From Leucoraja ocellata (Eukaryota), in contig JAWMAR010000611.1 in the NCBI GenBank assembly GCA_036785375.1, forward strand, positions 620,001 to 684,000: a stretch of DNA of 64,000 nucleotides, in the 5' to 3' direction. Position 1 is the stretch's first letter; each line of letters begins with the position of its first letter. Below are positions 4,801-63,619 of this stretch, piece by piece. Below the pieces are notes generated by a model. It did not search any database and was not told the DNA's origin. It saw nothing but the letters and a program-made list of their open reading frames with translations. The translations under genes were made by a program, and so were the position numbers.

Positions 4801-7800
4801 AGAAAAATAGAAACATAGAAATTAGGTGCAGGAGTAGGCCATTCGGCCCTTTGAGCCTGCACCGCCATTTAATATGATCATGGCTGATCATCCAACTCAG
4901 TATCCCGTACCTGCCTTCTCTCCATACCCTCTGATCCCCTTGGCCACAAGGGCCACATCTAACTCCCTCTTAAATATAGCCAATGAACTGGCCTCAACTA
5001 CCCTCTGTGGCAGAGAGTTCCAGAGATTCACCACTCTCTGTGTGAAAAAAGTTCTCCTCATCTCGGTTTTAAAGGATTTCCCCCCTATCCTTAAGCTGTG
5101 ACCCCTTGTCCTGGACTTCCCCAACATCGGGAACAATCTTCCTGCATCTAGCCTGTCTAACCCCTTAAGAATTTTGTAAGTTTCTATAAGATCCCCTCTC
5201 AATCTCCTAAATTCTAGAGAGTATAAACCAAGTCTATCCAGTCTTTCTTCATAAGACAGTCCTGACATCCCAGGAATCAGTCTGGTGAACCTTCTCTGCA
5301 CTCCCTCTATGGCAATAATGTCCTTCCTCAGATTTGGAGACCAAAACTGTACGCAATACTCCAGGTGTGGTCTCACCAAGACCCTATACAACTGCAGTAG
5401 AACCTCCCTGCTCCTATACTCAAATCCTCTTGCTATGAAAGCCAACATGCCATTCGCTTTCTTTACTGCCTGCTGCACCTGCATGCCTACCTTCAATGAC
5501 TGGTGTACCATGACACCCAGGTCTCGCTGCATCTCCCCCTTTCCCAATCGGCCACCGTTTAGATAATAATCTGCTTTCCCGTTTTTGCCACCAAAATGGA
5601 TAACCTCACATTTATCCACATTAAACTGCATCTGCCAAACATTTGCCCACTCACCCAGCCTATCCAAGTCACCTTGCAGTCTCCTAGCATCCTCCTCACA
5701 CCTAACACTGCCCCCCAGCTTAGTGTCATCCGCAAACCTGGAGATGTTGCCTTCAATTCCCTCATCCAGATCATTAATATATATTGTAAATAGCTGGGGT
5801 CCCAGTACTGAGCCTTGCGGTACCCCACTAGTCACTGCCTGCCATTGTGAAAAGGACCCGTTTACTCCTACTCTTTGCTTCCTGTTTGCCAGCCAGTTCT
5901 CTATCCACATCAATACTGAACCCCCAATGCCATGTGCTTTAAGTTTGTATACTAATCTCTTATGTGGGACCTTGTCGAAAGCCTTCTGGAAGTCCAGATA
6001 CACCACATGTCCACGCTACTAGTTACATCCTCGAAAAATTCTATAAGATTCGTCAGACATGATTTACCATTTGTAAATCCATGCTGACTTTGTCCAATGA
6101 TTTCACCACTTTCCAAATGTGCTGCTATCCCATCTTTAATAACTGACTCTAGCAGTTTCCCCACTACCGATGTTAGGCTAACTGTTCTGTAATTCCCCGT
6201 TTTCTCTCTCCCTCCCTTCTTAAAAAGTGGGGTTACGTTTGCTACCCGCCAATCCTCTGGAACTACTCCAGAATCTAAAGAGTTATGAAAGATTATTACT
6301 AATGCATCCACTATTTCTGGAGCTACTTCCTTAAGTACTCTGGGATGCAGCCTATCTGGCCCTGGGGATTTATCGGCCTTTAATCCATTCAATTTACCCA
6401 ACACCACTTCCCGACTAACCTGGATTTCACTCAATTCCTCCACCTCCTTTGACCCGCGGGCCCCTGCTATTTCCGGCAGATCATTTATGTCTTCCTTAGT
6501 GAAGACGGAACCAAAGTAGTTATTCAATTGGTCCGCCATATCCTGGTTCCCCATGATCAACTCACCTGTTTCTGACTGCAAGAGACCTACATTTGTTTTA
6601 ACTAATCTCTTTCTTTTCACATATCTATAAAAACGTTTGCAGTCAGTTTTTATGTTCACTGCCAGTTTTCTTTCATAATCCATTTTTCCTTTTCTAATTA
6701 AGCCCTTCGTCCTCCTCTGCTGGTCTCTGAATTTCTCCCAGTCCTCCGGTATGCTGCTTTTTCTGGCTAGTTTGTACGCATCATCCTTTGCTTTGATACT
6801 ATCCCTGATTTCCCTTGTTATCCATGGATGCACTACCTTCCCTGATTTATTCTTTTGCCAAACTGGGATGAACAATTTTTGTAGTTCATCCATGCAGTCT
6901 TTAAATGCCTTCCATTGCATATCCACCGTCAACCCTTTTAGAATTAATTGCCAGTCAATCTTGGCCAATTCACGTCTCATACCCTCAAAGTTACCTTTCT
7001 TTAAGTTCAAAACCATTGTTTCTGAATTAACAATGTCACTCCCCATCCTAATGAAGAACTCAACCATATTATGGTCACTCTTGCCCAAGGGGCCACGCAC
7101 AACAAGATTGCTAACTAACCCTTCCTCATTACTCAATACCCAGTCTAAAATAGCCAGCTCTCTCGTTGGTTCCTCTACATGTTGGTTTAGATAACTATCC
7201 TGCATACATTCCAAGAAATCCTCTTCCTCAGCACCCCTGCCAGTTTGATTCACCCAATCTATATGTAGATTGAAGTCACCCATTATAACTGCTTTGCCTT
7301 TGTCGCAAGCATTTCTAATTTCCTGTTTGATGCCATCCCCAACTTCACTACAACTGTTAGGTGGCCTGTACACAACACCCACCAGCGTTTTCTGCCCCTT
7401 ATTGTTTCGCAGCTCTACCCATACCGATTCCACATCCTCCAAACTAATGTCCTTCCTTTCCATTGCGTTAATCTCCTCTCTAACCAGCAACACTACCCCA
7501 CCTCCTTTTCCTTTCTCTCTATCCTTCCTGAATATTGAATATCCCGGGATGTTCAGCTCCCAGCCTTGGTCACCCTGGAGCCATGTCTCCGTGATCCCAA
7601 CTATATCATAATCATTAATGGCTATCTGCACGTTCAACTCATCCACCTTATTACGAATACTCCTTGCATTGAGACACAAAGCCTTCAGGCTTGTTTTTAC
7701 AACGCTCTTACCCCTTATACAATTATGTTGAAAAGTGGCCCTTTTTGATTTTTGCCCTGGTTTTGTCTGCCTGCCACTTTTACTTTTCACCTTGCTACCT

Positions 7801-11127: not shown

Positions 11128-11761
11128 TTTTAAACACCATTGATCCGTGTACGTTGTGAATATTTAACACCATTTATCCTGTATTTTAAACACTATTTCA
11201 AACCTGCTTAAACACAAGCCGATTCGGGATCTCCGCGGCTAGGAGGTCCCGAATCGGCCGCCTCCTACTGGAGACCGGGGCTTCATGATGTTGTAGGCCG
11301 CGGGCCGGCGATCGGAGCTTTTCTCTAGCGAGGGATCCTAGACTCTGCGAGAAAGAGTGCACGCTGCCCCCGCGACTAGAAGCTCCACACACCGCAGCTT
11401 CAGGGTGTTATAGTCCGCGGGCCAGCGATCAGAGCAATTCTTCTGGTGACCCCCGGCTCCGCGATCTGAGCTATAGGAAGAGATCAGCCTCAAGACAGAA
11501 AGTTATAATTTTTTTCTTACCTTTTGTCTTTAGTGGGGAATCTGAAGAAAGACTGCTATAATGTGCTCGAATCACTTACATTTACTATAGCAGAACAGCT
11601 CGCTACGCTGGTAGATGTGGATGCCATGATAGAAGCCCATTTAAAAAAAACGCTCATATATATGATTCTCAAAATGGCGCGCAAAAAATTACCCATGAGC
11701 CTATGACCGTACTACAGCTTTTTCGTCGAGTGGTTTATCTTGCTCCTCTATAATCTTTGGT

Positions 11762-13460
11762 GTGAACTGTGAGGAGGATGCTATGAGAATGCAAGGTGAC
11801 TTGAACAGGTTGGGTGAGTGGGCAGATGCATGGCAGATTAAGTTTAAAGCGGATAAATGTGAGGTTATTCACTTTGGTAGCAAAAACAGGAAGGCGGATT
11901 ACTATCTAAATGGCGTCAAGTTGGGAAAAGGGGAAGTACAATGGGATCGGGGGTCTTTGTACATCAGCCTATGAAAGTGAGCATGCAGGTACAGCAGGCA
12001 GTGAAGAAAACAAATGGCATGTTGGCCTTTATAACAAGAGGAATCGAATATAGGAGCAAAGAGGTCCTTCTGCAGTTGTACAGAGCCCTAGTGAGACCAC
12101 ACCTGGAGCATTGTGTGCAGTTTTGGTCCCCTAATTTGAGGAATGACTTTCTTGCTATTGAGGGAGTGCAGCGTAGGTTTACAAGGTAATTCCTGGGATG
12201 GCGGGATTGTCATATGCTGAGAGAATGGAGCAGATGGGCTTGTACACTCTGGAGTTTAGAAGGATGAGAAGATATCTCATTGAAACATATAAGATTGTTA
12301 AGGGTTTGGACACGCTAAAGGCAGGAAACATGTTCCCGATGTTGGGGGAGTCCGGAGTCCAGGGGCCACAGTTTCAGAATAAGGAGTAAGCCATTTAGAA
12401 CGGAGACGAGGAAACACTTTTTCTCACAGAGAGTGGTGAGTCTGTGGAATTCTCTGCCTCAGAGCGCGGTGGAGGCGGGTTCTCTGGATGCTTTCAAGAG
12501 AGAGGGCTCTTAAAAATAGCGGGGTCAAGGGATATAGAAACATAGAAACATAGAAATTAGGTGCAGGAGTAGGCCATTCGGCCCTTCGAGCCTGCACCGC
12601 CATTCAATATGATCATGGCTGATCATCCAACTCAGTATCCCGTACCTGCCTTCTCTCCATACCCTCTGATCCCCTTGGCCACAAGAGCCACATCTAACTC
12701 CCTGTTAAATATAGCCAATGAACTGGCCTCAACTACCCTCTGTGGACAGAGAGTTCCAGAGATTCACCACTCTGTGTGAAAAAAGTTCTCCTCATCTCGG
12801 TTTTGAAGGATTTCCCCCTTATCCTTAAGCTGTGACCCCTTGTCCTGGACTTCCCCAACATCGGGAACAATCTTCCTGCATCTAGCCTGTCCAACCCCTT
12901 AAGAATTTTGTAAGTTTCTATAAGATCCCCTCTCAATCTCCTAAATTCTAGAGAGTATAAACCAAGTCTATCCAGTCTTTCTTCATAAGACAGTCCTGAC
13001 ATCCCAGGAATCAGTCTGGTGAACCTTCTCTGCACTCCCTCTATGGCAATAATGTCCTTCCTCAGATTTGGAGACCAAAACTGCACGCAATACTCCAGGT
13101 GTGGTCTCACCAAGACCCTGTACAACTGCAGTAGAACCTCCCTGCTCCTATACTCAAATCCTCTTGCTATGAAAGCCAACATACCATTCGCTTTCTTTAC
13201 TGCCTGCTGCACCTGCATGCCTACCTTCAATGACTGGTGTACCATGACACCCAGGTCTCGCTGCATCTCCCCCTTTCCCAATCGGCCACCATTTAGCTAA
13301 TAATCTGCTTTCCGTTTTTGCCACCAAAATGGATAACCTCACGTGGGGAGAAGGCAGGAACGGGGTACTGATTGGGGATGATCAGCCATGATCACTTTGA
13401 ATGGCGGTGCTGGCTCGAAGGGCTGAATGGCCTACTGCACCTATTGTCTATTGTCTATTG
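11762..13460 (+). mobile_element. CR1 3' fragment split by a younger antisense CR1
   Basis: RT C-terminal ORFs 11762-12389. The 3' UTR resumes at 13343 (GGGGAGAAGGCAGG...) and ends in (CTATTGT)n. Confidence 0.9.
12535..13342 (-). mobile_element. CR1 3' fragment nested in the previous CR1
   Basis: ORF 12733-13281 is nearly identical to the 4897-6006 product. (TTTCTATG)n tail at 12535-12556. Confidence 0.92.
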
Positions 13461-54374: not shown

Positions 54375-55998
54375 CCTACAGTGGATGTGGGGAAAGCACT
54401 CGATTCCTCCATTGACCTCGCGTGCTTAGACATTTCTTCGTGGAGATTCAAGTGGACAGCAAAATATTCTGGTGAATCTGTAATATAAATCTACCATTTT
54501 ATTTGAACAAGATATGATAAAATAGACTCCCTCGGAGAATCCAGTTGATTTGCGCCAACTGCCAATATTGTTAAAACATATAATCGCCGTTGAGAATGAT
54601 ATCTTCATTGCCTTGTTTGTGTTGATCTAAAAATGGCTGGAAACAGAGATGAGCTGATTTAAATAAACAGTGATTTCAACAGCCCCAGACCCAGGTTCGT
54701 TTACTGAAGGACAGAAACAGAAGCAATGTTTCCCCAGAGGCGGAAAACAGATAAAGTGAGAAAGAAATGCAAATCTCTGAACAGATTACACCAGAGACAT
54801 TTATTTTAAATTGTCAACGTTCTCTCCCGTAAAAATAAAGTTGAAGTGCATATGGATGATGTTAGTCAATAATATATCTACAAAGCTAGGTTTACTGAGC
54901 ACATGTATCATATCCCTTTATTTATCAACAATGGCTGGGATCAATAACATTCTCTGCATACATATAAATGTCACACGTGACAAATTCACAGATGCATAGA
55001 AAATACAATGATAAATTAAAATTCAAGTCATAGAAGAATACTATGTTGGAGCGCAGGAAACTTTAATTGCCCGTATGCACCTTAAATTTTCGACACTCCT
55101 TGTGTTTTCCTCACAAATCAGTGAACTATTGTTTCTATTTATCTCCTCAGATAACTCTAGTGGATTCTTATTCAGATATCTCTATTAGATTTTTCGACAC
55201 CATCCGCCCTACCAGTGCAGTTTGAATCATTGAAATATTATCCAACAAATGTGCTCATTGGTTGATTGGTTAGAACGTGCCTTCATTCAACTTTGCTCTT
55301 TGGAACCAGCATCTGAAAATCAACACTACATGAATCATCCCTAATGCCGATCATTTCTCCAATCACTCCACAGATCTACAATTCCCCCCCCCCGCAATAT
55401 GCCACCCATTAATTTCCTTCCAATCTCTTAATGACATTTTAATAGAACCTTGTGTTTGCTTTGTATCAATTTCCACTACTGCCTTTTATGTAACCAATCT
55501 CGATATTGACATTTTATCTGTACGGCTGTATGGTGACCACACATTTCACTGTATCAACTGGGACATGTGACAAATAAATGTATCTTGATATTGGAATGGA
55601 CAGTCCCAATATTGTTCGAACGGCTCATATTGATAACTGCGAATGTGTAGGAAAGAACTGCAGATGCTGTTTTAAATCGAAGCTAGACACAAAATGCTGG
55701 AGTAACTCAGCGGGACAGGCAGCATCTCTGGAGGTCTGAAGAAGAGTCTCGACCCAAAACATCAAACATTCCTTCTCTCCAGAGATGCTGCCTGTCCCGC
55801 TGAGTTTCTCCAGCATTATGTGTCTACCTAATAATGAAGGCAGGCCTGTCTGTCTGTCTTTCTTGCTCAAATATTTTTCCTCACCTCTCCTCTCTCTCCC
55901 TCTCACACACGCAAGCACACACCCAGAAACATTTTAATATACATTTGAGGAATTCCGAACATATTTTATGAAACAACTGCACTATGAAACCAATCTTG

Positions 55999-56608
55999 AA
56001 AATAGGTGCAGGAGTAGGCCATTCGGCCCTTCGAGCCTGCACCGCCATTCAATATGATCATGGCTGATCATCCAACTCAGTATCCTGTACCTGCCTTCGC
56101 TCCACACCCCCTGAGCCCTTTAGCCACAAGGGCCACATCTAACTCCCTCTTAAATATAGCCAATGAACTGGCCTCAACTACCTTCTGTGGCAGAGAATTT
56201 CAGAGATTCACCACTCTCTGTGTGAAAAATGTTTTCCTCATCTCGGTCCTAAAAGATCTCCCCCTTATCCTTAAACTATGACCCCTATTTCTGGACTTCC
56301 CCAACATCGGGAACAATCTTCCTGCATCTAGCCTGTCCAACCCCTTAAGAATCTTGTAAGTTTCTATAAGATCCCCCCTCAATCTTCTAAATTCTAGCGA
56401 GTACAAGCCGAGTCTATCCAGTCTTCATATGAGTCCTGACATCCCAGGAATCAGTATGGTGAACCTTCTCTGTACTCCCTCTATGGCAAGAATGTCTTTC
56501 CTCAGATTAGGAGACCAAAACTGTACGCAATACTCCAGGTGTGCTCTCACCAAGACCCTGTACAACTGCAGTAGAATCTCCCTGCTCTTATACTCAAATC
56601 CTTTTGCT
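55999..56608 (-). mobile_element. CR1 3' fragment
   Basis: ORF 56200-56406 and CR1 3' UTR. Confidence 0.92.
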
Positions 56609-56689: not shown

Positions 56690-57990
56690 GCAAGGAGCAT
56701 TCGTAATAAGGTGGATGAGTTGAATGTGCAGATAGCTATTAATGACTATGATATAGTTGGGATCACAGAGACATGGCTCCAGGGTGACCAAGGCTGGGAG
56801 CTGAACATCCAGGGATATTCAATATTCAGGAGGGATAGACAGAAAGGAAAAGTATGTGGGGTAGCATTGCTGGTTAGAGAGGAGATTAATGCAATAGAAA
56901 GGAAGGACATTTGCTTGGCGGATGTGGAATTGATATGGGTAGAGCTGCGAAACACTAAGGGGCAGAAAATGCTAGTAGGAGTTGTGTACAGGCCACCAAA
57001 CAATAGTAGTGGAGTTGGGGATGGCATCAAACAGGAAATTAGAAATGCGTGCAACAAAGGTAAAACAGTTATAATGGGTCAATCTACATATAGATTGGGT
57101 GAATCAAATTGGCAGGGGTGCTGAGGAAGAGGATTTCTTGGAATGTATGTGGGATAGTTTTCTAAACCAACATGTAGAGGAACCAGCGAGAGAGCAGGCT
57201 ATTCTAGACTGGGTATTGAGTAATGAGGGTTAATTAGCAGTCTTGTTGTGCGTGGCCCCTTGGGCAAGAGTGACCATAATATGGTTGAGTTCTTCATTAG
57301 GATGGAGTGTTACATCATTAATTCAGAAACAAGGGTCCTGAATTTAAAGAAAGGTAACTTTGAAGTTGTGATTTGTGGTATAGGAACAGTGAGGTTCTAC
57401 TGCAGTTGTACAGGGTCTTGGTGCGACCACACCTGGAGTATTGCGTGCAGTTTTGACTCCTAATCTGAGGAAAGACATTCTTGCCATAGAGGGAGTACAG
57501 AGAAGGTTCACCAGACTGATTCCTGGGATGTCAGGACTTTCATATGAAGAAAGACTGGATAGACTCGGGTTGTACTCGCTAGAATTTAGAAGATTGAGGG
57601 GGGATCATATTGAAACTTACAAAATTCTTAAGGGGTTGGACAGGCTAGATGCAGGAAGATTGTTCCCGATGTTTGGGAAGTCCAGAACAAGGGGTCACAG
57701 TTTAAGGATAAGGGGGAAATCTTTTAGGACCGAGATGAAAAAAACATTTTTCACACAGAGAGTGGTGAATCTCTGGAATTCTCTGCCACTAAAGGTAGTT
57801 GAGGCCAGTTCATTGGCTATATTTAAGATGGAGTTAGATGTGGCCCTTGTGGCTAAAGGTATCAGGGGGTATGGAGAGAAGGCAGGTACAGGATACTGAG
57901 TTGGATGATCAGCCATGATCATATTGAATGGCGGTGCAGGCTCGAAGGGCCGAATGGCCTACTCCTGCACCTATTTTCTATGTTTCTATG
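56690..57990 (+). mobile_element. CR1 with large internal deletion (endonuclease piece joined to 3' end)
   Basis: ORF 56711-57124 (GITETW) and ORF 57441-57899. TTTCTATG tail at about 57975-57990. Confidence 0.92.
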
Positions 57991-58112
57991 TGTCTAATAG
58001 ATGTGATAGCGTGAGTCCATGTTGCTGTTGAGTTGGGAGCCGTGTTTCAGCTCCGCCCGCTGCACCACTCGGTTTACAAGTCCCGCCCACAGCCGCGCCC
58101 TCTTTTGCCGGG

Positions 58113-58119
58113 TATTTAA
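58113..58119 (+). promoter_or_regulatory. TATA-like element of the VH promoter (no octamer nearby)
   Basis: TATTTAA about 95 bp upstream of the leader ATG, preceded by GC-box-like CCCGCCC. The lack of a promoter octamer agrees with known chondrichthyan VH promoters. Confidence 0.5.
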
Positions 58120-58211
58120 TTCTCTCTAAGAGGGGCCGAAATCCAACTTCCTTGCAGTTGGTTTGTTGCGAGGTTCTGTACAGAAACAACAGGGTCACAC
58201 TTCCCAGCGGG

Positions 58212-58257
58212 ATGATGTCGGCGGTTTCACTGAGTTTGTTCCTGGCGTTAATAGTCC
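58212..58257 (+). CDS. IGHV: IgH V leader exon (MMSAVSLSLFLALIV-R)
   Basis: ATG at 58212, hydrophobic signal peptide, phase-1 donor GTGAGT at 58258. Confidence 0.92.
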
Positions 58258-58415: not shown

Positions 58416-58737
58416 GTGTCCATTCCGATATCGTTCTAACCCAGCCCGAGATAGAGACGGCCACTCCTGGAGGCTCCATCACACTGACCTGTAAAATCAG
58501 CGGGTTCAGTGTTGGCAGCAAGTGGATGGCTTTGGTCCATCAGGTCCCCGGGCAGGGGCTGGAGTGGCTGCTTACTTACCTCTCTTCTGCTCACACCAAG
58601 TACTTCGCTCCGGGGATAGAGAGCCAATTTACTCCGTCCAACGACAATACGAATAATATCTTCATCGTGACGGCCAGCAGCCTGAAGATCGAAGACACGG
58701 CTGTCTATTACTGTGCGAGACAGGGGGTATTGGATGG
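58416..58737 (+). CDS. IGHV: IgM-type VH exon, germline-joined to D sequence (VD/VDD)
   Basis: Acceptor TTGCAG ends at 58415. Translation [52 protein letters not shown]...[13 protein letters not shown]...[14 protein letters not shown] (to 58720), then 17 nt CAGGGGGTATTGGATGG with no intervening RSS. Confidence 0.93.
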
Positions 58738-58765
58738 CACAGCGGTTCCTACCAATACAAAAACA
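58738..58765 (+). promoter_or_regulatory. Recombination signal sequence, 12-bp spacer (D 3' RSS)
   Basis: CACAGCG (58738-58744) + GTTCCTACCAAT + ACAAAAACA (58757-58765). Confidence 0.93.
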
Positions 58766-59092
58766 TCCACAACCCATAATACGGTGGTCTGGGCCAGTAT
58801 ATGATATTTGCAATTCAATATTTCATACAACAAGAGCATAAACATGTCCAGGGATATTTTCGCACATTTTGTTGCATAGGTAACTTGAAGTAATTTGTAT
58901 TTTATATGTAGATAATTCTTATCACATTTCACTGCCCAGTTTAATACACGGAGCCGTGGCATCTGATTATTGTTGGAAATGATTTATTTAACGCATTCAT
59001 TGTTTTCAAAGAGCAATAAGTCATTCACCTTCGATGTGAAATACGAATAATTACAGGAATTTTGTTCTTTTTTGCCTACCTTGTGCAGATCA

Positions 59093-59131
59093 TGTTATTG
59101 TGTGAGGCAGCCCATAGAATGTAACACTGTG
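59093..59131 (-). promoter_or_regulatory. Recombination signal sequence, 23-bp spacer (JH RSS)
   Basis: TGTTATTGT (59093-59101, 7/9 to GGTTTTTGT) + 23 nt + CACTGTG (59125-59131). Confidence 0.88.
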
Positions 59132-59178
59132 TTACTATCTTGACTGGGGAGGAGGCACCATGTTGACGGTAACCAACG
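59132..59178 (+). CDS. IGHJ: JH segment (YYLDWGGGTMLTVTN)
   Basis: W-G-X-G motif, upstream RSS, phase-1 donor GTAAG at 59179. Confidence 0.93.
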
Positions 59179-60710: not shown

Positions 60711-61020
60711 TAGCCATGGTTTATTCTCCCAACGATAGTCGACCTGGCAAATGCTTGCTTTCCTCTTTCCACAAATGCTGCCTAACCCAATGACCCATTT
60801 CTCTGTTTTCTGTCAAAGATCACGAGTTTTCCCATTTGGAAAATGCGTTGAATGTAAAACGGGGAGATGCAGTTCTTGAATAATTTGTAATCCGTGGATT
60901 TATTAGAAAGCGAATTTGAATTCGTGTTTGTCTATGGCTCCAAATGTCATTTAAACAAAATGTTCCTCTACTGAATTGCTAATGAAAAATGTCCGTTTTA
61001 CGAATAGTTGCGGTAAGAAA

Positions 61021-62557
61021 AATGAGAAATTGGGAAAAACGGAATGTTGGAAACGGAATTTTCTCCGCTAATTTAGATAATAGGTGCAGGAGTAGAGGCC
61101 ATTCGGTCCTTCGAGCTAGCACCGCCATTTAATGTGATCATGGCTGATCTTCCCCAATCAGTCCCCTTTCCTGCCTTCTCCCCATATCCACTGACTCCGC
61201 TATCTTAATTTTAATTACAAAACAGGGTATCCCATTAATCATTGAACAGAGTGCGAATTGAAATCCATGGCTTAAAGGAGGGTTTGAGTGGCGTTCAAAT
61301 TTACATTTGCATTTATTTAATTAAAGCATTGATTTAGCAACATTGTGCATTTTCACTATTCTAAGTAAACTTCCTCTATATGAATGAAAGCCTTTTCCTG
61401 TTAAAGTCACGAAGCAAACTCAGATATGTTTTAATAGATTGCAGGTTATAATTTATAATTGGTATATTTGATATTCGTTTCCTATCGGACAGCGATACAA
61501 ACCCGTCTGAAGAAGGGGTTCGGCCCGAAACGTTGCCCTTTTCCTTCGCTCCGTAGATGCTGCTGCACCCGCTGAGTTTCTCCAGCTTTTTTGTGTACCT
61601 TCGATTTTCCAGCATCTGCAGTTCCTTCTTAAACACAGTGATACAATGTTAATCATTCGTTCTTTTGTGCCGATCACATTGTAAACGTAAACTCGTTTTA
61701 AAGATGCTGGAAACTGAACTGAATTGCATCATCATTAATTTTAATTGATTATTATTGATTTCATTGAGGCAATGATGCACACAGACAAACATTTGAAACA
61801 TGTGCCAATTTATTTAATTACGAAGTATTAACATGTTGTTACAATTTATATGCTACATTTAGTTTCCAAATGTTGTGGTACATAACCTTTACTAATTCAG
61901 ATATTATATTGAGGGAGTTATTTTTAATCCTTACCAATGCAATCTCATACATGTTTTTAATCTGGTATGAATGTAATGTTCTTGCCGGCTGGTTTGCTTT
62001 TTGGAATGTCCTTGCAATTACGGTCGACATAGAAATGATCGGTATATTTTCGTGAGTGATGGGACAACAAAATACAGTTAAAAAGTAACATTTGAAGTGT
62101 GTTATTTGTCGCTACCATTTCAATCCCATTCACCCCCTTAGTTGGTTTCGTTCGATGGACACATTTAAGGCCAAATTACACGAACAAGATTGTGATTGTT
62201 TATTTTTTGTCTTCTCCCAAATTATGTTCGGGACCCGATGTGGAAACCACAGCCATCCTTCCATTGTTTCTGATTTTATCGGATAATCTCTGAACCATTT
62301 ATGACAAAAACTCTTCCCTCTTCCTTCAAATCAAAAGTTTAGCCACGGGCACTCTCAGTGGCCCAAGCGAAACCTGCCTAAATTATTTAATTTTAATTAA
62401 ATAAATGCATATGTAATTTTGAACGTCAGTCAAACCCTCGTTTGAACCATTGATTTCAATTCCCACTCTGTTCACGGATTAGTGGGATAACTGTTCGATT
62501 CAAATAGCAGAGAAAATGTTGTTTCCAACATTGCACATCATTTCACCAATTTCCATT
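61021..62557. repeat. Decayed inverted repeat in the J-C intron, arms carrying octamer motifs
   Basis: 61221-61325 versus the reverse complement of 62392-62495 (about 14 differences in 105 nt by eye). It extends outward to 61021-61074 / 62500-62557 across a CR1 tail inserted at 61075-61204. Confidence 0.85.
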
Positions 62558-63322
62558 TAGTTGGGTACACGGGACAACCCCTGACACAGACTGGCCGATT
62601 CCCCGAACTCTTCCTCCTGTACCCATGCAGAACTCATCGACTTCATTGGCTACAAACTTTGACCGTACGATCAAATTCCCCGGGTCTATCCCCGACACAT
62701 ACCTCCCCTTTGTTGATTTCACCGTCTCCATCGCAGGAGATAGACTATCGACTGACGTAAATAACAAATCTACGGACTCCCACAGCTATCAGGACTACAC
62801 CTCTTCCAACCTTGCCTCCTGCAAAGATTATATGGTCTATTCCCAAATTCATCCATCTCCGTGCAACTGCTCCCAAGATGAGTTGTTCCATCCCAGGATA
62901 TCCGAGGTCCTCATTCTTTAGGGAGCGGGTATTCTCCACTTTTACAATAGACGAGACTCTCACACGTGTCTACACTGTATCCCGTAGATCCGCCCTTGCT
63001 CCATCATCCCCAGTCGCAACAAGGAGTTTGGTGAGATTGTAACACATACGCCAACGTTAGTTATAGCCATTGAACATTCCTGAGAAATGCTGGGAATTTT
63101 ACAGTAATGAATACTGGAGGCCTATCGATATATTTCCAACTCGAAATTGTGCGTACATTTGGAAGTAACTGCCAGATATTGGCACCCAAGACGTTTTCAG
63201 CCAATGTTTTCCAAGGTGGGATCAAGGCGGAATGATTGTGTGATACTCAGGTGAAGTTGCATGAAATAGACAAGAGAGAGAGAGAGAGAGAGTTTAACAT
63301 TCATGTGGCCTTTGCTTTGCAG

Positions 63323-63619
63323 CGGCTCCATCCGCGCCCAGTCCCTTCATTCTCTTCACCTGCGAGGATCAAGGCTCCGGTGGTTCGTTCACCTATGGTT
63401 GTTTGGCGTTGGGCTACTCCCCTGCGGGCGCCAGTGTTTCTTGGAAGAAAGATTATATAAAACTGGAGACCGGAGTGAAGGACTACCCGGCAGTGTTCAA
63501 TAAGTTGGGAACTTATACCCGGAGCAGCGAGTTAACCATCACCGCGGCGGCGGCAGCGGGAGGTGACATCTTCTGCGTGGTTCAGCACAACCAGACCGAG
63601 TATAAAGTGAAAGTACCAG
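63323..63619 (+). CDS. IGHM: IgM heavy-chain constant exon 1 (C-mu-1)
   Basis: Acceptor TTTGCAG. Translation (A)APSAPSPFILFTCEDQGSGGSFTYGCLALGYSPAGASVSWKKD...YPAVFNKLGTYTRSSELTIT...DIFCVVQHNQTEYKVKVP, with C1-set Cys/Trp/Cys and the light-chain Cys intact. Donor GT at 63620. It closely resembles skate IgM CH1 as I recall it. Confidence 0.93.

Follow-up and report, generated by a model that had tools for sequence, protein, structure and literature searches.

The core of the mammalian intronic heavy-chain enhancer E-mu consists of E-box and Ets sites, and the catfish E-mu-3' enhancer is located 3' of C-mu. E-mu itself lies between J and C-mu in AT-rich surroundings; it contains one octamer, which according to passages in PMC1800861 is situated outside of its core. 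The same passages describe the catfish core as two variant octamers plus a mu-E5 site and report that catfish Oct1 and Oct2 bind the consensus as well as the variant octamer ATGTAAAT. In the mouse, the 3' regulatory region of the IgH locus (hs3a / hs1,2 / hs3b) harbours hs3a and hs3b as inverted enhancer copies. Portions of PMC4757795 characterise it as a palindrome that spans 25 kb on the 3' side of the C genes, includes proven enhancers and has been tested for its effect as a palindrome, and compensated change between its arms is suggested in part of PMC9936319. In sharks the IgH genes lack the upstream octamer on which other vertebrates rely, and each IgH cluster of a shark or skate is activated independently, as stated in sections of PMC2435157. 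OCA-B orthologs exist in cartilaginous fish (sections of PMC13043367). Our literature search yielded no description of an IgH enhancer of cartilaginous fish, nor of the repeat reported here; it missed some relevant older papers, and priority is uncertain.

The DNA analysed, hereafter called the window, is a stretch of 64,000 nucleotides from Leucoraja ocellata (GenBank assembly GCA_036785375.1, contig JAWMAR010000611.1, positions 620,001 to 684,000). Its end is occupied by an immunoglobulin heavy-chain cluster made up of a leader, a V to which D is already attached, a J and a C exon; three further C exons follow past the window's end. Identity to the little-skate Ig mu chain of PIR, P0003, amounts to 94% for C-mu1 and 92-95% for C-mu2-4, which makes it a skate IgM cluster and places the repeat in its J-C-mu intron. 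With V-(D)-J in front and four C-mu exons plus a secretory tail behind, the arrangement is that of an IgM cluster. The IgW isotype is ruled out by the identity to P0003 together with the four C-mu exons. A PDB search returned generic antibody chains only. The features are the following:

58100..58211, plus strand: IgM V promoter / 5' region with TATA-like and GC-box-like sites, without octamer; our positive control for constraint
58212..58257, plus strand: leader exon, read from the sequence and in agreement with the P0003 leader
58416..58737, plus strand: V exon, germline-joined to D, directly followed by a 12-spacer RSS (58738-58765)
59132..59178, plus strand: J segment, with a 23-spacer RSS (59093-59131) in front
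61020..61073, plus strand: left arm, outer part, from the inverted-repeat alignment
61074..61210, minus strand: 3' tail of a very high-copy retroposon, presumably CR1-like, within the left arm; missing from the right arm, with many copies in the loci
61211..61325, plus strand: left arm, core, from the inverted-repeat alignment
61289..61295, plus strand: CRE-like site; TGACG is its usual form in right arms and in the left arms of subfamily B, altered in the window's subfamily
61299..61312, plus strand: variant octamer (61299-61306) overlapping a perfect octamer (61305-61312), left arm
61326..62391, no strand: spacer, specific for IgM clusters, with a SINE-like insert (about 61488-61635) inside; no transposase match
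62392..62557, minus strand: right arm, unbroken, from the inverted-repeat alignment
62405..62412, minus strand: octamer site of the right arm, which in the window carries the derived T>A change
62558..63026, plus strand: decayed high-copy retroelement fragment, which by resemblance we take to be Penelope-like; truncates the outer end of the right arm, no Pfam match, contig depth at most 68,000
63323..63619, plus strand: C-mu1 exon; C-mu2-4 and the secretory tail lie beyond the window

The arms proper, 61228-61325 and 62392-62489, are 98 nt long, 88% complementary and separated by 1066 nt. With 123 bits they form the best inverted pair of the intron; 60 shuffles did not exceed 37.4 bits. A gapped alignment fuses this core with an outer inverted pair (61043-61073 / 62502-62532), so that each arm comprises about 165 bp (61020-61325 and 62392-62557). 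The inverted arms which an earlier note on this DNA had placed at 61221-61325 and 62392-62495 are thus real, and so is the outward extension it proposed. It had overlooked the insert of about 140 nt that interrupts the left arm, the high-copy insert that truncates the right one, and a TGACG resembling a CRE that precedes the octamer by about 10 bp. Searched inward or beyond the right-hand insert, the repeat does not continue above the level of shuffles.

The repeat belongs to IgM clusters. A search with the right arm gave at least 41 matches at 40 places (the best 40 of 82 candidates were scored). When ten-kilobase stretches were taken at 38 of the matches, every one proved to be an IgM cluster that carries both arms; of two further loci, one has both and the other, at a contig end, the right arm only. 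When C-mu1 was used instead, at least 41 loci were found (best 150 of 230 candidates scored), and they are identical to the arm-bearing set. In sum, the arm is present in the J-C-mu intron of 41/41 IgM clusters found, one of them partial at a contig end.

It was not found in the other immunoglobulin loci examined. Ten regions were collected by V similarity; nine of them are clusters that we presume to be of the IgW type, judging from their many C exons, and the tenth has no J match. Between J and the first C exon of the IgW-type clusters neither the arm nor a perfect octamer was found (0/9). Homology searches by nhmmer with IgW introns and light-chain loci gave nothing useful, the best light-chain match being partial, with E 0.006, in one of five. 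A promoter octamer with an AT-rich tail is seen in 3/5 light-chain stretches. In two light-chain V promoters, L104:4999 and L105:5664, an ACGT-core site precedes the octamer by 7-8 bp, and the sequence behind the octamer is an AT-rich tail; this layout loosely resembles the inner block of the arm, without homology by nhmmer. As a separate observation, all nine IgW-type clusters contain a 470-bp inverted pair, 67-69% alike, with one arm in the J-C intron and the other between C exons (e.g., 5789-6261 and 11344-11807 in the joined positions of L071-L072).

Low-copy inverted pairs are not rare here. In 249 kb of sampled loci we counted 58 local inverted pairs, of which five, including the arm pair, have at most one other match there. 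One of the five, a locus-private inverted duplication, lies upstream of a light-chain V (L101:397-513 / 1821-1941, i.e., G000:C531:1050396-1051940). It resembles the IgM pair in its general geometry, with arms of about 120 bp (117-121 bp, 83% alike) placed 1.3 kb from each other, and its four genome matches are confined to that locus and its duplicate; unlike the IgM pair, it is devoid of an octamer and has not been multiplied 41 times.

The clusters fall into two main subfamilies, A and B, which are 8.7% apart over the intron, and one outlier. Both subfamily types also occur in contigs of other organisms. The left-arm insert is present in all three subfamilies and missing from the right arm, which implies that the duplication preceded the insert. 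Left and right arm are fixed for different letters in 23 of 171 columns; about 63 bp of the right arm are lost in two clusters, and in two the outer left arm is unmatched. The order of events was duplication, entry of the retroposon into the left arm, split of the subfamilies and, finally, the T>A change in the right octamer. The SINE-like insert in the spacer (61488-61635, with a 12-bp duplication) is found in subfamily A and missing from most of subfamily B. Four sequencing runs, which carry three organism labels, contain the junction that skips 146 nt with 12 shared letters, and both states occur in those four runs.

The strings ATTTACAT at 61299, ATTTGCAT at 61305 and ATGCATAT at 62405 had been read correctly in the earlier note, and the left arm does contain a variant octamer overlapping a perfect one. 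The perfect octamer is found in the left arm of 39/39 clusters and in the right arm of 29/39; the variant occurs in 38/39 left arms and in no right arm (0/39). The perfect form is ancestral in both arms. The arm octamers are the only perfect octamers common to at least 20 of the 39 introns. By chance, 0.27 octamers are expected per 4.1-kb intron and about 0.01 per 160 bp.

The right octamer is lost in 10/39 clusters, including 2/18 unjoined intact ones: T>A is seen in 7/18 subfamily-A clusters and T>C in 3 of the other 21. It is present in 16/18 unjoined and in 13/20 other clusters. A tie between octamer loss and germline joining is only weakly indicated, most losses belonging to one clade. 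The right-arm string had also been proposed as a MORE site for an Oct dimer. ATGCATATGTAA agrees in 10/12 positions with the MORE consensus as quoted in that proposal. The palindromic 12-mer, however, is not kept; it results from a recent, derived T>A point change in 7/39 clusters, all of subfamily A, at what ancestrally was a plain octamer.

The CRE-like TGACG is found in 37/39 right arms and 20/39 left arms, having disappeared from every left arm of subfamily A. Within the arms, no consensus for mu-E5, mu-E2, mu-E3, PU.1, kappa-B or EBF is common to at least 20 of the 39 clusters. The octamer is overlapped by an E-box of generic type, and 21/39 left arms contain an EICE-like string. A MEF2-like string beside the right arm (39/39) has no counterpart in the left arm and was treated as AT-rich noise.

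With mammalian E-mu the skate repeat shares the position between J and C-mu, the perfect Ig octamer and the AT-rich surroundings. Two traits of an intronic enhancer, location in the J-C-mu intron and an Ig octamer, are present. The cluster of E-protein and Ets sites that stands beside the octamer in E-mu is not, and the E-box/Ets core sites are not shared inside the skate arms. E-mu moreover has a single octamer and, unlike the putative skate enhancer, does not form an inverted pair. Like the catfish enhancer, the skate repeat has two octamer-type sites, and the variant ATGTAAAT overlaps the perfect octamer of the left arm. It differs from the catfish core in the lack of mu-E5, in having the variant octamer in the left arm only and in that its two sites belong to inverted copies, with 1.1 kb between them. 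The mouse 3' regulatory region is similar in that inverted duplicates enclose unique sequence within an IgH locus. Dyad symmetry kept by compensated change, as suggested there, is not seen in the skate arms: the three subfamily consensuses show no co-changes, and 23/171 columns are fixed different; the power of this comparison is low. No homology between the skate repeat and the mouse palindrome is implied.

Rates of change were derived from a tree of 39 introns, which is shallow (length 0.49) and of low power for an 8-bp site. The mean of the intron is 0.420 changes per site. The V promoter shows 0.177, less than all 3469 intron windows, a slowness that may partly come from gene conversion. 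The left core changes at 0.419 per site and the right core at 0.314; among intron windows of equal size, 54% and 20%, respectively, do not exceed these values. The whole arms, in short, change at about the background rate of the intron, and motif conservation beyond this background, for which the earlier note had proposed to look, is not clearly seen across the 39 clusters.

The inner ends look slightly different. The inner 37-nt blocks show 0.216 (left, 11% of windows) and 0.324 (right, 35%) changes per site; in the two together 20 changes were counted where 29.6 were expected (Poisson p 0.041, with rates overdispersed 2.1-fold). The left octamer has no change on the tree (Poisson p 0.038), yet 12.8% of the 8-nt windows are also unchanged, and 342/4084 intron 8-mers are identical in all 39 clusters. 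The right octamer changed four times, a value that 73% of windows do not exceed. Rates from the 18 unjoined, intact clusters alone lead to the same result. The fixed differences between left and right arm thin out toward the octamer end (13/66, 7/55 and 3/50 columns); the best 21-column window of left-right likeness reaches p 0.045 over the whole arm and 0.13 in the core. Among the differences listed for other organisms, none falls within 61292-61325. A weak hint of mild conservation of the left octamer and the inner ends (p 0.04-0.13) is what these numbers amount to.

The best reading, to which we assign a probability of about 55%, is an old and near-neutral local inverted duplication that was copied with each cluster. 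A segment of about 165 bp of the J-C-mu intron, containing one octamer, would have been duplicated in inverted orientation about 1 kb away, likely once, and perhaps by a template switch during replication or repair. The inverted pair would then have been copied with each IgM cluster and likely have drifted near the neutral rate, the palindrome as such presumably escaping selection. A single duplication of an octamer-bearing segment means that the two octamers need only one chance octamer. This reading fits the arms' changing at intron rate when the promoter is lower than 3469/3469 windows, the four changes of the right octamer and its loss in 10/39 clusters, the absence of co-changes and of G-U bias at paired positions, the score of 0/9 in IgW-type clusters and the occurrence of low-copy inverted pairs elsewhere. 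It does not easily explain the unchanged left octamer, the slowed inner blocks and the inward fall of left-right differences, and the tree from which the rates were taken is shallow. That an octamer falls into a given 160-bp piece by chance in about 1% of cases is the main remaining argument for a function. Oct proteins may still make use of the left octamer; the inverted architecture would not be what selection keeps. A neutral duplication would do no more than mark how skate IgM clusters were duplicated over time.

As the chief rival, though less likely, the arms may represent a duplicated Oct-dependent intronic enhancer composed of CRE-like site, octamer and AT-rich tail, of which the left copy would be essential and the right one redundant. 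They would feed Oct2/OCA-B input to IgM clusters whose V promoters are devoid of an octamer. The position in the J-C-mu intron in 41/41 clusters and the perfect octamers, 39/39 left and 29/39 right and the only ones shared across introns, are consistent with this idea, as are the mildly slowed inner blocks. Further points in its favour are shark IgH genes that do without the upstream octamer (passages of PMC2435157), fish Oct1/Oct2 that bind consensus and variant octamers (passages of PMC1800861) and OCA-B orthologs in cartilaginous fish (passages of PMC13043367). Mouse hs3a/hs3b provide a precedent for inverted enhancer copies (parts of PMC4757795), and skate light-chain promoters show the octamer with an AT-rich tail in 3/5 stretches. 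The window test, however, reveals no significant excess of conservation. The right octamer is lost in 10/39 clusters, 2/18 unjoined intact ones among them, and the CRE-like site from all left arms of subfamily A; shared mu-E5, mu-E2, PU.1, kappa-B or EBF sites are lacking in the arms, the only E-box being a generic one overlapping the octamer; and IgW-type clusters do without the module.

Among the things that would speak against such an enhancer, the earlier note had named that the arm be a high-copy transposon end and that motif conservation in the clusters show no excess. The first does not apply, the arm being restricted to IgM clusters; the second largely does, across 39 clusters. That the module is an intronic IgH enhancer of cartilaginous fish, a compact unit of CRE-like site and octamer in inverted duplicate with Oct2/OCA-B input, we consider a tentative and rather unlikely proposal. 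If true, it would amount to a convergent counterpart, reduced to 1.5 kb, of the mouse hs3a/hs3b palindrome and would set the regulation of IgM clusters apart from that of IgW clusters. An active module would narrow two questions, the activation of cluster-type IgH genes and the age of E-mu-like control, to a precise target of 40 bp. Controls are provided by natural variation: clusters differ in whether the right octamer is intact or changed and in whether they have the CRE-like site, and IgM clusters can be set against IgW. From the sequences at hand, we would describe the repeat as a real, old, IgM-specific inverted duplication that usually has an octamer in each arm, and as a candidate enhancer with weak hints.

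A third explanation, already raised in the earlier note, derives the arms from an old DNA transposon of the non-autonomous kind: they would be its terminal inverted repeats, and its other copies would have vanished or decayed past recognition. We consider it improbable. The geometry would fit: as in a MITE, inverted arms, here of about 165 bp, surround roughly 1 kb (about 0.93 kb) of non-coding DNA. The right outer end is cut by the other insert, with no continuation beyond it, so that a target-site duplication is unreadable, and the outer arm has a match at one place outside the Ig loci. The searches, however, found no copies scattered over unrelated loci, although copies more than about 20% diverged could have escaped them. 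A scan with the arm pattern and one mismatch gave 54 matches. With three mismatches, 80/88, 76/78 and 69/69 matches of three scans fell inside IgM clusters. The 8 outside matches of the first of these scans are fewer than its control (16), and none extends past 22-35 nt; the 2 of the second are one duplicated fragment. The genome-wide count of the arm that had been suggested thus comes down to IgM clusters, chance matches and one apparently captured piece of DNA.

This piece (G000:C109:3301118-3301180, L108, with a duplicate near C109:3451261) is a 65-bp, 84% copy of the outer left arm without the octamer. It spans the junction between arm and retroposon. Joined to it is a truncated LINE, by its 5' end, and the 40 kb around it contain no Ig gene. 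It looks like IgM intron sequence that was captured during LINE insertion.

The spacer, too, matches IgM clusters only (best 40 of 51 candidates scored), and three of its longest reading frames gave no Pfam match, to a transposase or otherwise, at E 0.1. Contig depth, a rough measure, is over the arms about that of unique intron in the four runs, hundreds in three and tens in the fourth; over the retroposon inserts it rises to between hundreds of thousands and millions. A high-copy transposon end is ruled out by the IgM-confined scans, the IgM-only spacer and the depth resembling that of unique intron; as judged from these searches, the arm is not a dispersed transposon end. Unlike a MITE, the repeat has neither dispersed copies nor a readable target-site duplication nor a transposase remnant.

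Least of all do we believe that the arms are kept because they pair in the pre-mRNA, as once suggested, or form a stem in single-stranded DNA that affects splicing, editing or AID targeting: the predicted RNA fold joins them end to end, as it would with any such repeat, and a palindrome effect on hypermutation is described for the mouse 3' regulatory region (portions of PMC4757795), but no sign of selection for pairing is seen, with no co-changes of paired positions among the three subfamily consensuses (a test of low power), 23/171 columns fixed different, no G-U bias (10:4, 7:8, 8:6), no Rfam match over the arms, a left arm split by the 140-nt insert in all subfamilies, some 63 bp of the right arm lost in two clusters and an outer left arm unmatched in two.

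A few observations on the locus may be added. The state of germline joining, read from the V-J distance, differs between clusters: of the loci L031-L047 and L050-L070, 19/38 are unjoined, 18/38 partly joined and 1/38 (L040) fully joined. The cluster of the window (58416-59178), with V joined to D, retains a 12/23 RSS pair. Near the start of the window, an 82-bp inverted pair (892-973 / 1110-1191, 99% alike, 136 bp apart) has a MITE-like appearance and no further match in the 249-kb sample. Another inverted pair of 600 bp (55998-56600 / 57370-57978, 94-96%) consists of high-copy retroposon sequence and ends just upstream of the V promoter.
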